From positions 37,803-101,802 of the forward strand of contig JADMKK010000024.1 of assembly GCA_015478895.1 (NCBI GenBank): a DNA stretch of 64,000 bases. The letters are read 5' to 3'. Source of the stretch: Comamonas sp. (GTDB lineage: Bacteria; Pseudomonadota; Gammaproteobacteria; Burkholderiales; Burkholderiaceae_C). Positions 3,908 through 55,501 of this stretch are shown piece after piece; position 1 is the stretch's first letter; each line of letters begins with the position of its first letter. A model generated the notes under the pieces. It saw only the letters and a list, made by a program, of their open reading frames with translations. It made no database searches and was not told where the DNA came from. Made by a program: the position numbers and the translations under genes.

Positions 3908-4789
3908 TTAGTCGTTGGCTTCTTCTTCCTTTTTGTCGGCGGCCACGCCAGCAGCTACGCCCAGCTTGTCTTGCACACCGGCAAACTTGCTGTACTTGGT
4001 GAGCACCGGCACCAGTTGGCCATAGGCGCGGGGGTTGCCGGCCAGGCATTCGGCCTGTTCCAGGAAGTCGGCTTCGCCGGTGAAGTTGCCCACCAGACCA
4101 CCGGCTTCGGTGATCAGCAAGCTGCCTGCGGCCACGTCCCAGATGTTCAGGCCCGATTCAAAGAAACCATCGGTAAAGCCAGCGGCCACGTAGGCCAGGT
4201 CCAGCGCTGCAGCGCCGGGGCGGCGTACACCGGCCACACGCTGGGTCACGTCGGCAAACATGCGCATATAGCTGCGCAGGTTGTCGCCGGGACGGTAGGG
4301 GAAGCCGGTGGAGATCAGGCAGTCCTTGAGCTGGGTGCGCTTGGAGACGCGGATGCGGCGTTCGTTCAAGAACGCGCCACGGCCACGGGTGGCGGTGAAC
4401 AAGTCGTTGCGGCTGGGGTCGTACACCACGGCGTGTTCGATCTTGCCCTTGAAGGACAAGGCAATGCTCACTGCGTAGACAGGAAAGCCGTGGATAAAGT
4501 TGGTGGTGCCGTCCAGCGGATCAATGATCCAGACGAAGTCCGAGTTGGGGTTGCCGAACTCGTTGCCGGTTTCCTCGCCCAAGATACCGTGGTCAGGGTA
4601 TGCACCCAGCAGGGTGTCGATGATGATGCGCTCAGCCGCTTGGTCGACTTCGGTGACGAAGTCATTGACTTGCTTTTGCGCTACACGAACCGATTCAACG
4701 TCCAGCGCGGCGCGGTTGATGATGGCGCCGGCGGCGCGTGCAGCCTTGATGGCCACGTTGAGCATGGGGTGCAGGGAGGAAGACGACAT
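3908..4789 (-). CDS. suhB: Inositol monophosphatase family / Nus factor SuhB
   Basis: [12 protein letters not shown] and WDVAAG motifs; divergent from trmJ as usual. Confidence 0.95.
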
Positions 4790-51572: not shown

Positions 51573-52694
51573 TTATTCCTTATTGATATAGCCAGTGATT
51601 TCCAGTCCATAGCCCGCCATGCTGGGCATGCGGCGCGGCTGGCCCAGCAGCTGCATCTTATGAACTCCACATTCGCGCAGAATTTGTGCGCCAATGCCGT
51701 AAGTGCGCAGGTCCATGCGGCCACGCTCTGGTGCTTGGGCCGAGCGGGCCTTGCCTTCAAATTGCGCCATCAGCTGCTGCGCGTTTTCGCTGCAGTTGAG
51801 CAAAACCGTCACACCCTGGCCGCGCGCTGCAATGTATTCAAGGCTGGTGTCCAGGCTCCACGAATGCATGCTGCGGTTGACTTCCAGCGCGTCCAGCACC
51901 GACAGTGGCTCGTGCACGCGCACGGCGACTTCGTCGGACTCAGCCCATGTGCCTTTAACCAGTGCCATGTGAACCGACTGGCTGGGCTTGTCAAGGAACA
52001 GGTGGGCAGTGAACTCACCCCAATGGGTGCTGAGGCTGCGGCTGCCAATTTTTTCCAGCAGCGATTCATCGCGGCTGCGGTATTCGATCAGATCGGCAAT
52101 CGTGCCAATTTTCAGACCATGCTCTGCGGCAAACAGTTGCAGATCAGGCAGACGGGCCATGGTGCCGTCGTCCTTCATGATCTCGCAGATCACCGACGAT
52201 GGGCTGCAGCCGGCCATGGCGGCCAAGTCACAACCGGCTTCGGTATGACCGGCACGAATCAAAACGCCGCCATCGACTGCTTGCAGCGGGAAAACGTGGC
52301 CGGGTTGTACCAAATCTGTTGGCACTGCTGATTTGGCCACCGCCGTCTGGATGGTGCGCGCGCGGTCTGCGGCAGAAATGCCGGTGGTCACGCCTTCTGC
52401 GGCTTCAATGGATACCGTGAATGCCGTGCTGTACACAGTGCCATTGCGCGCAGCCATCGGTGGCAGCTTGAGGAATTCGCAACGCTCGCGGGTCAGCGTC
52501 AGACAGATCAGGCCACGGCCAAACTTGGCCATGAAGTTAATGGCTTCTGGTGTGACGTGGTCAGAAGCCAGTACCAAGTCGCCCTCGTTCTCGCGGTCTT
52601 CTTCATCGACCAAGATGACCATGCGGCCAGCACGCATTTCAGCCACGATGTCTTGCACCGGTGAAATCTGCACGGGGTTGAGAGGGGTGTTCAT
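51573..52694 (-). CDS. ribB: DHBP synthase fused to a degenerate GTP cyclohydrolase II domain (RibBX type)
   Basis: [20 protein letters not shown]-terminal domain reads [10 protein letters not shown] without the zinc-binding cysteines. Confidence 0.93.
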
Positions 52695-52777
52695 GGGTAG
52701 TTTCCTTGGAGTGACCTGTCAGGTGCCGGCAGCACAGTCTTGGTATGGGCGCCGGCCCAGCATGCAAAGTGCATACC

Positions 52778-52788
52778 TCCAAAGAACA
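52778..52788 (-). promoter_or_regulatory. boxA-like element in the ribB-ribH-nusB leader
   Basis: TGTTCTTTGGA versus boxA consensus GYTCTTTAANA, ~84 nt upstream of the ribB ATG. Confidence 0.4.
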
Positions 52789-52904
52789 TATGTGCGCGGT
52801 CACCGCCGCTGGGAGCCCCCGCGCCGGATGGTGCGAGGTGCTCGGGGAAAAAAGCATTTTAGTGCTTTGTTGTGGGTTTGCCCGCAAAAGCTTGCAGCGT
52901 TGCC

Positions 52905-53201
52905 CTAGGACTCAGGGTTTTGCAAGCTGACATCGCTGTCTGGATAGGCCACGCAAGGCAGCACGCAGCCTTCAGCTTTTTCCTCCGCCGTCAAGCTGGG
53001 CCACTCTATCTGGTAATGCACGGAGCCCGAAGTGAGCTTGCCCAGGCAGGTGCGGCAACTGCCGTTGCGGCAGGAGCTGGGCCACTGCAGCCCCCCCATT
53101 TCCATGGAGTCCAGCAACGTATCTGTGGCCCATGCATCACATTGATCGCCTTGGGGCTCAAGCTTGGCAATAAATAACTGGGGGGTGAAAACTTCATTCA
53201 T
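52905..53201 (-). CDS. 2Fe-2S ferredoxin
   Basis: C-x4-C-x2-C (CRNGSCRTC) plus distal LPC. Confidence 0.92.
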   Translation of the reverse strand: MNEVFTPQLFIAKLEPQGDQCDAWATDTLLDSMEMGGLQWPSSCRNGSCRTCLGKLTSGSVHYQIEWPSLTAEEKAEGCVLPCVAYPDSDVSLQNPES

Positions 53202-53239
53202 CTCGCAAAGCAGCACAAAGGCAAAGGGCGCAAAAAAGA

Positions 53240-53720
53240 GATTGTGCTTGTTTTGCGCCGCAAATTGGAGGTGAAGGGGTGCTTAAAAAACAAGCACAAC
53301 AGCTGGTGCCTTTGCAGATCAAGCACTTGTGCGCGGTGTTGCTCCTTTCTCTGACTTTATCCACATAGTTGTGCATGAAAATTGGGGGCAACTGCGGCAT
53401 AAACACGAGATATCCACTGCGTACCTGAGTTGGTGCGCCATCGCGGTGAATAAAGTGCCGTGTTGTCTAAATTTTAGACATTGAATTTTATGTGTAATGA
53501 AATCAATGGTTTGATTGAGTTGTTGTTGGTGTTGCGATGACTTATGCACAGGATTGTTCAGTTTTTCCGGGTACAAGTTGACTGGGTTTATTAAGATTTG
53601 CCTAAAAAATAGGCATTTCTGAACAGTTGTTGCAAAACAAGCACTTATGAAACTTGTTAGGTGCCATGCAGAACTTGTCCACATGGTTGTGCTGCTTAAC
53701 GGGGGATAAGATTTTTCATG
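53240..53720. other. Candidate chromosomal replication origin (oriC)
   Basis: ~750-bp non-coding gap; DnaA boxes TTATCCACA (53357, perfect), TTATGCACA (53542), TTGTCCACA (53675) and degenerate boxes at 53370, 53410, 53445, 53701; IHF consensus; AT-rich core. Confidence 0.7.
53501..53513 (+). promoter_or_regulatory. IHF consensus site
   Basis: AATCAATGGTTTG matches WATCAANNNNTTR exactly, with an AT-rich 5' flank. Confidence 0.6.
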
Positions 53721-53971
53721 CAAGCCATTGACTATTTGGAGGCGGGCTGCACTTATAGCTTCGTTGGCGGTAGCGCGATGCGATGCTGTCTGATAGCGGC
53801 CGCGCTTTAGCGGTTACAAAGTGAGTCTGCAATCGCCTGGGGCTTGCAACAGGAGATAGAGCGTGGTTATGTCACTTGGGGGCTACAGCGCCAAAGGCAT
53901 ATCTCTATGATTCGACGCAATAAGGCACATGCTAAGGTTGCCTCCAGTTTTGACCATCACATCCGACAAGA

Positions 53972-55501
53972 ATGAATTCAACGTCCAAGCCGTTTTCCCT
54001 GCCCGCTGCCGAGCGCCTTGTAAGCATACGACGCGGTATTGAAAAAGAAGGCTTGCGCGTATTGCCATCGGGCTCTTTGGCACTGACACCGCACCCTGCT
54101 GCATTGGGTTCTGCACTCACCCATCCCCACATCACCACCGACTACAGCGAATCGCAGCTGGAATTGATCACCGGCGCGCGCGTGGGTGTGGAGGAATGCC
54201 TGCAAGAGTTGCAGCAGGTGCACCAGTACACGCTGCACAGCATGGCGCAGCTGGGCGAGGAGACCATCTGGGCCTCCAGCATGCCCTGCCACTTGCCGAC
54301 CGATGAAACCATTCCGCTGGGCCGCTATGGTGCCTCGCACGTGGGACGCTCCAAAAGCGTTTATCGCATGGGCCTGGGGCACCGCTATGGCCGGCGTATG
54401 CAGACCATCTCGGGCATCCACTACAACTGGTCGCTGCCAGGCGTCAGCAGCGAAGAGTATTTCGCGCTGATTCGCAACTTTCGCCGCAATGCATTTGTGC
54501 TGCTGTATTTGTTTGGCGCATCGCCTGCGCTGAGTACCTGTTTTGTGGATGGGCGCGAGCACCGTCTGCAGCCTTTGGGCGATGCCAAAAAAGCGCTGCA
54601 CTTACCGTATGCCACTTCGCTGCGCATGGGCCGCCTGGGTTACCAGAGCGATGCCCAAGCGTCGATCAATGTCAGCTACAACGGTCTGGATGGCTATGCC
54701 CACTCGCTGCACCAAGCGCTGACCCAGCCTTACCCGGCTTATGAGCAACTGGGCGTGCGCAACCCCGGTGGTGACTACAACCAGCTGGGCACCAGCTTGC
54801 TGCAGATTGAAAACGAGTTCTACGGCACCATCCGCCCCAAACGCACCGTACACAGCGGCGAGCGTCCGCTGCACGCCCTGCGCGAGCGTGGTGTGGAATA
54901 CGTGGAAGTGCGGCTGATGGACTTGGACCCGTTTGAGCCGCTGGGCATCAATACCAGCACCATGCGCATGCTGGATGTGTTCTTGCTGCACTGCCTGCTC
55001 AGCGACAGCCCCGACGATTCACCGGAGGAAATCACCCAGCTCAAGCACAACCAGCATCTGGTGGCTGAGCGTGGACGCGAGCCGGGCTTGCAGCTGCAGC
55101 GCGGCAGTGAATCGGTCACGCTGACCGATTGGGCCAATGCCATGCTCAGCGAATGTGTGCCACTGGCCGCAGCGCTGGATGCCGCGCATGCCACTACGGC
55201 CTATAGTGAAGCCCTGGCGCTGGCGCAGTCGCGCGTGGCGCAGCCGCACACCACACCCTCGGCGCGCGTGCTGGAACAAATGCGCCGCCTGCATGGCAAC
55301 AGCTTTGCGCAATTTGGCCTGACCCAATCGCTGTGGGCACGCGATCAATTGCTCAGCCTGCCTTGGAGCGTGCAGGATGCCGAGCGCTTTGCGCAAATGG
55401 CGCAAACCTCAGTGCAGGCGCAGCAAGCCATTGAAGCGGCCGACACGGGCAGCTTTGAAGCGTGGCGACAGCGTTATATGGATCCTGCAGCGCTGGGTTA
55501 A
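53972..55501 (+). CDS. gshA: Glutamate-cysteine ligase
   Basis: RRGIEKEGLR, HITTDYSESQLE, ISGIHYN, ATSLRM, ENEFYG, YVEVR. Confidence 0.96.
   Translation: MNSTSKPFSLPAAERLVSIRRGIEKEGLRVLPSGSLALTPHPAALGSALTHPHITTDYSESQLELITGARVGVEECLQELQQVHQYTLHSMAQLGEETIWASSMPCHLPTDETIPLGRYGASHVGRSKSVYRMGLGHRYGRRMQTISGIHYNWSLPGVSSEEYFALIRNFRRNAFVLLYLFGASPALSTCFVDGREHRLQPLGDAKKALHLPYATSLRMGRLGYQSDAQASINVSYNGLDGYAHSLHQALTQPYPAYEQLGVRNPGGDYNQLGTSLLQIENEFYGTIRPKRTVHSGERPLHALRERGVEYVEVRLMDLDPFEPLGINTSTMRMLDVFLLHCLLSDSPDDSPEEITQLKHNQHLVAERGREPGLQLQRGSESVTLTDWANAMLSECVPLAAALDAAHATTAYSEALALAQSRVAQPHTTPSARVLEQMRRLHGNSFAQFGLTQSLWARDQLLSLPWSVQDAERFAQMAQTSVQAQQAIEAADTGSFEAWRQRYMDPAALG

Follow-up and report, generated by a model that had tools for sequence, protein, structure and literature searches.

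We identified an array of three tandem DnaA-box modules that fills most of a 755-bp intergenic gap, with a ferredoxin gene on one side and gshA on the other, in a Comamonas sp. genome. The array is conserved and is not the replication origin; it has an architecture like that of Escherichia coli DARS2 and, in the complete genomes in which it was placed, lies in the terminus-proximal half of the replichore. Our preferred reading, to which we assign a probability of about 0.45, is that it is a conserved DARS2-like DnaA-control locus built of three tandem modules. Such a locus would probably tune the initiator protein rather than start replication. The putative ligands (DnaA, IHF, and Fis) are named on the basis of their binding motifs, and a direction of the effect on DnaA is hypothesized below.

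Anatomy of the array

The window (i.e., the whole 64,000-nucleotide stretch of DNA that was analyzed; C24:37,803 to 101,802) belongs to a 111-kb contig, C24, of a draft genome (61 contigs; 3.2 Mb) whose close relatives are Comamonas avium and C. aquatica. Positions given without a contig name refer to the window. The array lies immediately 5' of a gene for a plant-type [2Fe-2S] ferredoxin (52905 to 53216, minus strand; Pfam Fer2, 4e-14), and gshA (glutamate-cysteine ligase) follows at 53972 to 55501 on the plus strand.

The three modules are ~112 bp each and share one order. On the plus strand, a Fis-consensus-like palindrome is followed after ~21 bp by an IHF-consensus site, after a further 27 to 28 bp by a strong DnaA box, and then by two weak boxes. 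The core geometry is the same in every module, with 3 bp between boxes a and b, both of which are in the plus orientation, and 5 bp between box b and the inverted box c. Read on the opposite strand, this corresponds to box I(+)-5 bp-box II(-)-3 bp-box III(-), followed by the IHF site and then the Fis site.

In module 1, the palindrome GCTTAAAAAACAAGC (53281 to 53295) has one mismatch to the Fis consensus and coincides with a block, TGCTTAAAAAATAAGCA, that is conserved in 10 Comamonas species. Its IHF-like site, GATCAAGCACTTG (ATCAA-N4-TTG; 53317 to 53329, plus strand), is invariant in these 10 species and stands at a fixed 27 bp from the box. The three-box core, TTATCCACA-tag-TTGTGCATG-aaaat-TGGGGGCAA (53357 to 53391, plus strand), is the top match in the genome to the position weight matrix (PWM) described below (48.4 bits). 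Module 2 comprises the palindrome GTCTAAATTTTAGAC (53465 to 53479), an exact match to the Fis consensus GNNYAWWWWWTRNNC; the IHF site AATCAATGGTTTG (53501 to 53513, plus strand), an exact match to WATCAANNNNTTR that is partly conserved in relatives; and the core TTATGCACA-gga-TTGTTCAGT-ttttc-CGGGTACAA (53542 to 53576, plus strand), in which most relatives have a perfect TTATCCACA as box a. Module 3 has a second exact Fis-consensus match, GCCTAAAAAATAGGC (53600 to 53614), an IHF-like site with one mismatch, AAACAAGCACTTA (53635 to 53647, plus strand), and the core TTGTCCACA-tgg-TTGTGCTGC-ttaac-GGGGGATAA (53675 to 53709, plus strand), which is the second-best PWM match in the genome (32.3 bits). 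Box c of module 3 reads CGTGGATAA in relatives. The 64-kb window contains three exact Fis-consensus matches, and two of them are those of modules 2 and 3.

The individual motifs listed in the original prediction were all found where it had placed them, among them the perfect box at 53357 followed by TAGT-TGTGCATGA, the unit TTGTCCACA-TGGT-TGTGC at 53675, the boxes TTATGCACA at 53542 and GGGGGATAA at 53701, the TTG-rich run at 53511 to 53534, and the A+T-rich tract. This tract (~53464 to 53544) is 69% A+T vs 42% for the genome. Three descriptions needed revision. The string beside 53357 had been read as an inverted degenerate box, but it makes a better match as a direct weak box (TTGTnCAG) 3 bp downstream of the perfect box, and the true inverted box lies 5 bp further on. 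The exact IHF consensus at 53501 is one of three IHF-like sites, one per repeat unit. Two further boxes that had been listed, ATATCCACT at 53410 and GGTGAATAA at 53445, are present, but each has two mismatches and neither is conserved.

The box-like ATATCCACT at 53410 was created by a 12- to 13-nucleotide insertion between modules 1 and 2 (53396 to 53420) that occurs only in this genome. The insertion increases the spacing of these modules from 173 to 185 bp.

Consensus and genome-wide specificity

A consensus was derived from 73 distinct modules at 40 loci, and the positions that were left free by the search pattern were examined for information. Near-maximal information was found at four such places, TTGTcCAG at positions +12 to +19, GGGAtAA at +28 to +34, TGCCTAAAAAATAGGCA at -77 to -61, and the AA that precedes TCAA at -40 and -39. 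In the consensus core, box a (TTATCCACA) and box b (TTGTCCAGn) are both in the plus orientation with 3 bp between them, and an inverted box c, which reads TTATCCCnn, lies 5 bp further on. Boxes b and c typically have three mismatches to TTATCCACA, box b having mostly three to five (69 of 73 modules); the perfect box is the outer one, box a, at the box III position.

The two flanking motifs are also recurrent. The IHF consensus WATCAANNNNTTR was matched exactly at -40 to -28 in 45 of the 73 modules, a consensus match only, and the spacer from this site to the box was 27 bp in almost all matches. The palindrome at -76 to -62 matched GNNYAWWWWWTRNNC exactly in 17 of the 73 modules and with at most one mismatch in 49, compared with 0% at control offsets. 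The Fis consensus is degenerate, and the conserved TGCC...GGCA arms exceed what Fis requires; another dimeric protein could therefore bind there.

Box counts by themselves are only marginally above chance. With at most one mismatch, TTATCCACA occurs at 467 sites in the whole genome, 15 of them perfect. With one perfect and two one-mismatch boxes inside 320 bp, the array ranks third among the 500-bp box clusters of the 3.2-Mb genome, in which chance alone would produce about one three-box cluster. A genome-wide scan for the three-box arrangement (up to seven mismatches in total) returned two sites only, module 1 and a solitary module described below, and scans with other spacer combinations returned zero to three matches each, so that two matches do not amount to an enrichment. 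With an ungapped PWM derived from other genera, only modules 1 and 3 of the array exceeded 15 bits in the genome. That the cluster is real is shown by conservation, the blocks being unchanged among 10 Comamonas species and the fixed-length spacers between them varying freely.

Chromosomal origin and position of the array

The original prediction had given the chromosomal origin as its first interpretation of this region, with a minimum of cumulative GC skew expected to fall there. Within 755 bp of intergenic DNA, the region does combine DnaA boxes with an IHF consensus and, in this species, with an ~80-bp tract of 69% A+T. However, all 5-kb bins of C24 have positive GC skew, and the cumulative skew rises monotonically through the array without any inflection on this contig. 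The gene dnaA is absent from the window, as had been noted, and was found at C41:146,764 to 148,170. On the same contig, the cumulative-skew minimum (185,034; 37 kb from dnaA) falls inside the best DnaA-box cluster of the genome (C41:184,450 to 185,611; five perfect and four one-mismatch boxes). The surrounding region (C41:184,300 to 185,620; L017 9300 to 10620) is 1.3 kb of noncoding DNA, 59% A+T, with A+T-rich TAGTA-type repeats; it is flanked by a porin gene and by a hypothetical gene followed by rdgC. Its boxes occur mostly in the context CTTTCTGTGGATAA, unlike the boxes of the modules, and neither the ungapped module PWM nor the exact signature pattern had a match in it. We conclude that the C41 cluster at the skew minimum is the chromosomal origin. 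An equivalent cluster lies 38 to 57 kb from dnaA in C. avium and an Acidovorax genome.

Complete genomes of relatives place the array inside one skew arm and far from dnaA. In the complete 5.22-Mb chromosome of genome G093 (OZ260105.1), the sampled skew is negative from 0.1 to 2.3 Mb, mostly positive from ~2.5 to 4.4 Mb (consistently so from 2.86 Mb), and near zero from 4.7 to 4.9 Mb. In this chromosome, dnaA lies at 2.40 Mb and a cluster of three perfect boxes at 2.33 Mb, and the array lies at 4.07 Mb, 1.68 Mb from dnaA, with positive skew on both sides. Across 13 complete genomes (about a dozen genera), the array is 0.26 to 0.46 of the chromosome away from dnaA; this corresponds to 0.52 to 0.92 of the replichore, i.e., its terminus-proximal half. 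The sole match near dnaA (30 kb; genome G414) is a single divergent one. The A+T-rich tract, moreover, was not kept in the array that was examined from Acidovorax, a G+C-rich genus in which the same modules are present. That the array is oriC or a second active origin is accordingly extremely improbable, and the origin interpretation of the original prediction is rejected, a skew switch elsewhere with a better box cluster being among the grounds that the prediction itself had given for its refutation. Its fallback, a datA/DARS-like DnaA-binding locus, fared better: anatomy and conservation support it, and the anatomy points to the DARS2 type in particular.

Two other groups of boxes were observed on C41. 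The second-best box cluster of the genome (C41:177,141 to 177,306, L017 2142 to 2307; two perfect and two one-mismatch boxes in 165 bp) lies within an 800-bp region upstream of a DinG helicase gene, and a perfect palindrome with 8-bp arms, AGTGCTTG-AAAAA-CAAGCACT, is found 150 bp from it. An equivalent box pair occurs 7 kb from the oriC cluster in C. avium. In addition, the facing DnaA boxes TGTGGATAA and CTATCCACA (C41:146,686 to 146,744) are located less than 80 bp upstream of the dnaA start at 146,764, which is the usual layout for dnaA autoregulation.

Conservation and gene neighborhood

The pair AAGYACTTGTGC...TTATCCACA was found in 10 of 77 Comamonas genomes, once per genome and always with a total length of 45 bp, while the spacer sequence was free. 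In an alignment of the ten species, short invariant blocks alternate with variable spacers of fixed length, and this pattern is repeated three times. Each repeat comprises TGCYTA-A5-TARGCA, then ATCAA-N4-TTR ~21 bp on, the DnaA box after 27 to 28 bp, TTGTnCAG, and an inverted box-like block. A footprint of this kind, made up of short invariant blocks and free spacers of fixed length, looks more like a set of protein sites than an RNA gene; an Rfam scan of 52600 to 54300 at E <= 1 gave no match.

When 401 genomes (201 genera) were sampled from the family, the signature ATCAA-N4-TTR-N26-28-TTATCCACA was detected in 49 genomes and 28 genera, usually in two to four tandem copies, and the reversed control pattern had no match. 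The box-to-box spacing of modules 2 and 3 (~134 bp) is kept from Comamonas to Acidovorax. Many Comamonas genomes whose chromosomes are larger lack the array or have a single module of it; the array is therefore dispensable.

Two other origins for the repeats were considered and rejected. A mobile repeat would not be expected to keep to fixed positions, at one or two loci in each genome. An integrated plasmid or phage origin with iterons does not fit the lack of a rep gene, the housekeeping neighbors, or the stable synteny across genera.

The usual partner of the modules across other genera is the ferredoxin operon, next to which the array always has the same orientation, and not gshA, to which the array has no linkage there. 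The ferredoxin gene is the first of an fdx-ribBA-ribH-nusB run. In Hydrogenophaga, where the gene order differs and the ferredoxin gene lies downstream of gshA, the modules are still directly 5' of the ferredoxin gene. This fixed relationship also fits transcriptional control. In that case, the promoter of the ferredoxin-ribBA-ribH-nusB operon (in relatives, a divergent short-chain dehydrogenase/reductase [SDR] gene as well) would be the target of DnaA, IHF, and a dimeric regulator, Fis-like or otherwise, and its expression would be tied to growth rate or to the replication cycle. DnaA is known to act as a transcription factor, the solitary module too is 5' of a gene (lrgA-like), and E. coli DARS1 is itself intergenic, just upstream of uvrB.

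Several observations oppose this explanation. Three to four full modules (at least 420 bp) are excessive for one small operon, and a scan for promoter and terminator consensus sequences found promoter-like sites at chance level only. In Acidovorax, an open reading frame that resembles a methyltransferase (named by appearance only) separates the array from the ferredoxin gene. Nearly all relatives carry the SDR-family gene (306 to 332 amino acids) between the array and gshA. In the present genome, the gene (~1 kb) has been lost by a clean deletion with no remnant, the junction of which is at 53720 to 53786 by comparison with relatives, and SDR paralogues elsewhere in the genome are only 42 to 48% identical. 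The array outlived this deletion. In one genus, furthermore, four modules stand between the convergent 3' ends of two genes, where there is no promoter to serve. The last two observations indicate that the array is not a mere promoter element, and we consider transcriptional control as its role to be improbable.

The identity of the ferredoxin was also assessed. Its scores for both NCBIfam fdx_plant and YfaE are under the cut-off. The possibility that it is YfaE, which serves ribonucleotide-reductase maintenance and would have offered a parallel to DnaA control of nrdAB-yfaE, was unsupported (NCBIfam, 33 bits vs a cut-off of 75).

Additional module loci

The four modules between convergent genes form a second locus, found in two genomes of one genus (G436 and G121). 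These modules are complete and take up the whole space between an IclR-family regulator gene and an OprM-type efflux gene, the 3' ends of which point toward each other; the efflux gene is followed by AcrB (L154 3651 to 4280, and L156). This second array is 0.08 to 0.15 of the chromosome from dnaA, and the ferredoxin-linked array of the same genomes, with two modules, is 0.37 to 0.42 away.

The Comamonas genome has a solitary module 1.7 kb to the left of the window start and 55 kb from the array (C24:35,985 to 36,091; L159 3985 to 4092). Its core (C24:36,057 to 36,091), TTATCCACA-GAT-TTATCCAGA-GATTT-CGTGGAGAA, has boxes with zero, one, and two mismatches, respectively, and is the best DARS-like core in the genome. 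The module carries its own IHF-like site, AAACAATGACTTA, and its own palindrome; it lies 5' of the lrgA-like gene. BLAST showed that the module is conserved in three other Comamonas genomes; an exact-pattern search of the genus for it returned array modules only. Box c retains the 3' half of the DnaA consensus (TTCTCCACG) in the solitary module and the 5' half (TTATCCC) in the array. What the two versions have in common is the DnaA box, which would favor DnaA over another protein as the ligand.

A dispersed repeat of ~40 to 50 bp (GCGCTAGCCTTTATGTAATAAGGGCAAGTAGCTATG) was noticed at C24:35,915 to 35,975 (L159 ~3916 to 3975). At least seven further copies (83 to 93% identity) occur in this genome, with copies on C30, C41, C4, C37, and C20, and a similar element is found beside an Acidovorax array.

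Comparison with known DnaA-control loci

The DARS core has the arrangement I(+)-5-II(-)-3-III(-), for which the 5-bp gap is stated explicitly (PMC6868365). In the E. coli genome sequence (NC_000913), we located the DARS1 core as TTATCCACT-ATTCC-TGTGGATAA-CCA-TGTGTATTA and the DARS2 core as TTATTCACC-TTTTC-TGTGGATAG-AGT-TGTGAAGAA. To the right of DARS2 box III are two adjacent IHF-like sites, 3 bp apart as published (IBS1-2; L149 2229 to 2257), and a Fis-consensus match lies further right.

The array resembles DARS2, which occupies the rppH-mutH intergenic region, in several respects. All three modules and the 73-module consensus have the same three-box geometry, polarity, and order. Beyond box III, an IHF-consensus site comes first, about halfway along, and a candidate Fis site comes next (PMC4245941, PMC11724364). 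Both are noncoding, nonorigin loci away from oriC. The factors needed at DARS2 (IHF, Fis, and a pool of ADP-DnaA generated by Hda) are encoded in this genome, i.e., a fis homolog directly after dusB (C25:98125 to 97913; 46% identity), ihfA on C52 (59% identity), an ihfB-like gene on C61, and hda at C20:116913 to 117596 (E = 3e-22). In DnaA, the DNA-contact residues R399, D433, and T435 are conserved.

There are also differences. The array has three tandem copies, compared with one in E. coli, and there is no sequence homology beyond the motifs; the neighbors are ferredoxin-ribBA and SDR/gshA genes and not uvrB or mutH. The distances from core to IHF site and from IHF to Fis site are 27 and ~21 bp in the array vs ~58 and ~23 bp in E. 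coli. The strongest box is at the III position, whereas it is the middle box II in both DARS1 and DARS2. In E. coli, Gln208 of DnaA is the facing-dimer interface residue required for ADP release at DARS; the aligned position in this genome is Ser, and V211, Q215, F239, K243, R285, and L290 are conserved. A DARS mechanism in the strict sense is opposed by the Ser at position 208, by the consensus box being the outer and not the middle one, and by the roughly three mismatches of the weak boxes.

DARS1 (bioD-uvrB intergenic region) has an identical core geometry, and a gene lies a short way downstream of it, as is the case for the solitary module at C24:36057. It differs from the array in its box strengths and in needing no IHF or Fis sites, motifs for both of which are present in every module.

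The clusters of DnaA boxes outside the origin that modulate initiation in other systems, i.e., datA and the nonorigin clusters of Bacillus subtilis and Streptomyces, are the other group to which the array may be compared. A datA-like or purely titrating sink would form the same IHF-assisted oligomer but would stimulate DnaA-ATP hydrolysis or sequester DnaA, thereby lowering the initiation potential. DnaA-box clusters with IHF sites are a feature of datA (PMC5742627), and the array would suit such a role in that the weak boxes beside a strong one favor cooperative ATP-DnaA oligomers and the three to four modules per locus provide many sites; the unconserved Gln208 also weakens the case for a mechanism specific to DARS. 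The facing boxes with a 5-bp gap and the Fis-like site beyond the IHF site are, however, the signature of DARS; datA has no facing-box core of this kind and no Fis requirement. Moreover, datA is origin-proximal in E. coli and has a single IHF site located between its boxes, whereas the array is terminus-proximal in the 13 complete genomes. We judge a sink to be unlikely.

The oligomerization region of oriC offers a further parallel. A strong box there, with an IHF site next to it, seeds arrays of weak boxes a few base pairs apart (PMC5716108). The array differs in having neither a conserved unwinding element nor a skew switch.

Model and implications

If the array is a DARS2-like locus, its action might proceed as follows. 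DnaA would nucleate on the strong box, and IHF would bend the DNA between the Fis-like site and the core. Cooperative filling of the weak boxes would then place two DnaA molecules opposite each other, on either side of the 5-bp gap. Nucleotide exchange on ADP-DnaA might be promoted, as at DARS2, or the level of active DnaA might be set in another way; promotion of exchange is the direction of effect that we hypothesize. Initiation at oriC would thus be coupled to growth phase and to the time at which the late-replicating array locus is duplicated.

For annotation, the immediate consequence is that oriC lies tens of kilobases from dnaA in this genome (37 kb) and its relatives and that no origin should be annotated at the array.

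What is known of how noncoding loci (DARS1, DARS2, and datA) control the DnaA nucleotide cycle comes almost entirely from E. coli. DARS cores have been reported in E. coli-related gammaproteobacteria and in Vibrio (PMC4245941, PMC6090056), and the literature on DARS that we searched covered these groups only, with nothing on Comamonadaceae. The array belongs to a betaproteobacterial family, is deeply conserved, and follows the DARS2 layout motif for motif, yet it is repeated, has other box strengths, and is accompanied by a DnaA without Gln208. It is possible, although we advance this only tentatively, that Comamonadaceae carry an undescribed modular DARS made up of self-contained Fis-IHF-three-box units, with two to four units per late-replicating, ferredoxin-linked locus and a second locus in some lineages, and that it works without Gln208. 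If so, the DARS principle (facing DnaA molecules, a 5-bp gap, and assistance by IHF and Fis) would predate and outrange the E. coli-related gammaproteobacteria. The differences between the array and DARS2 would then allow a direct test of which DARS features are essential and of how initiator control has evolved.
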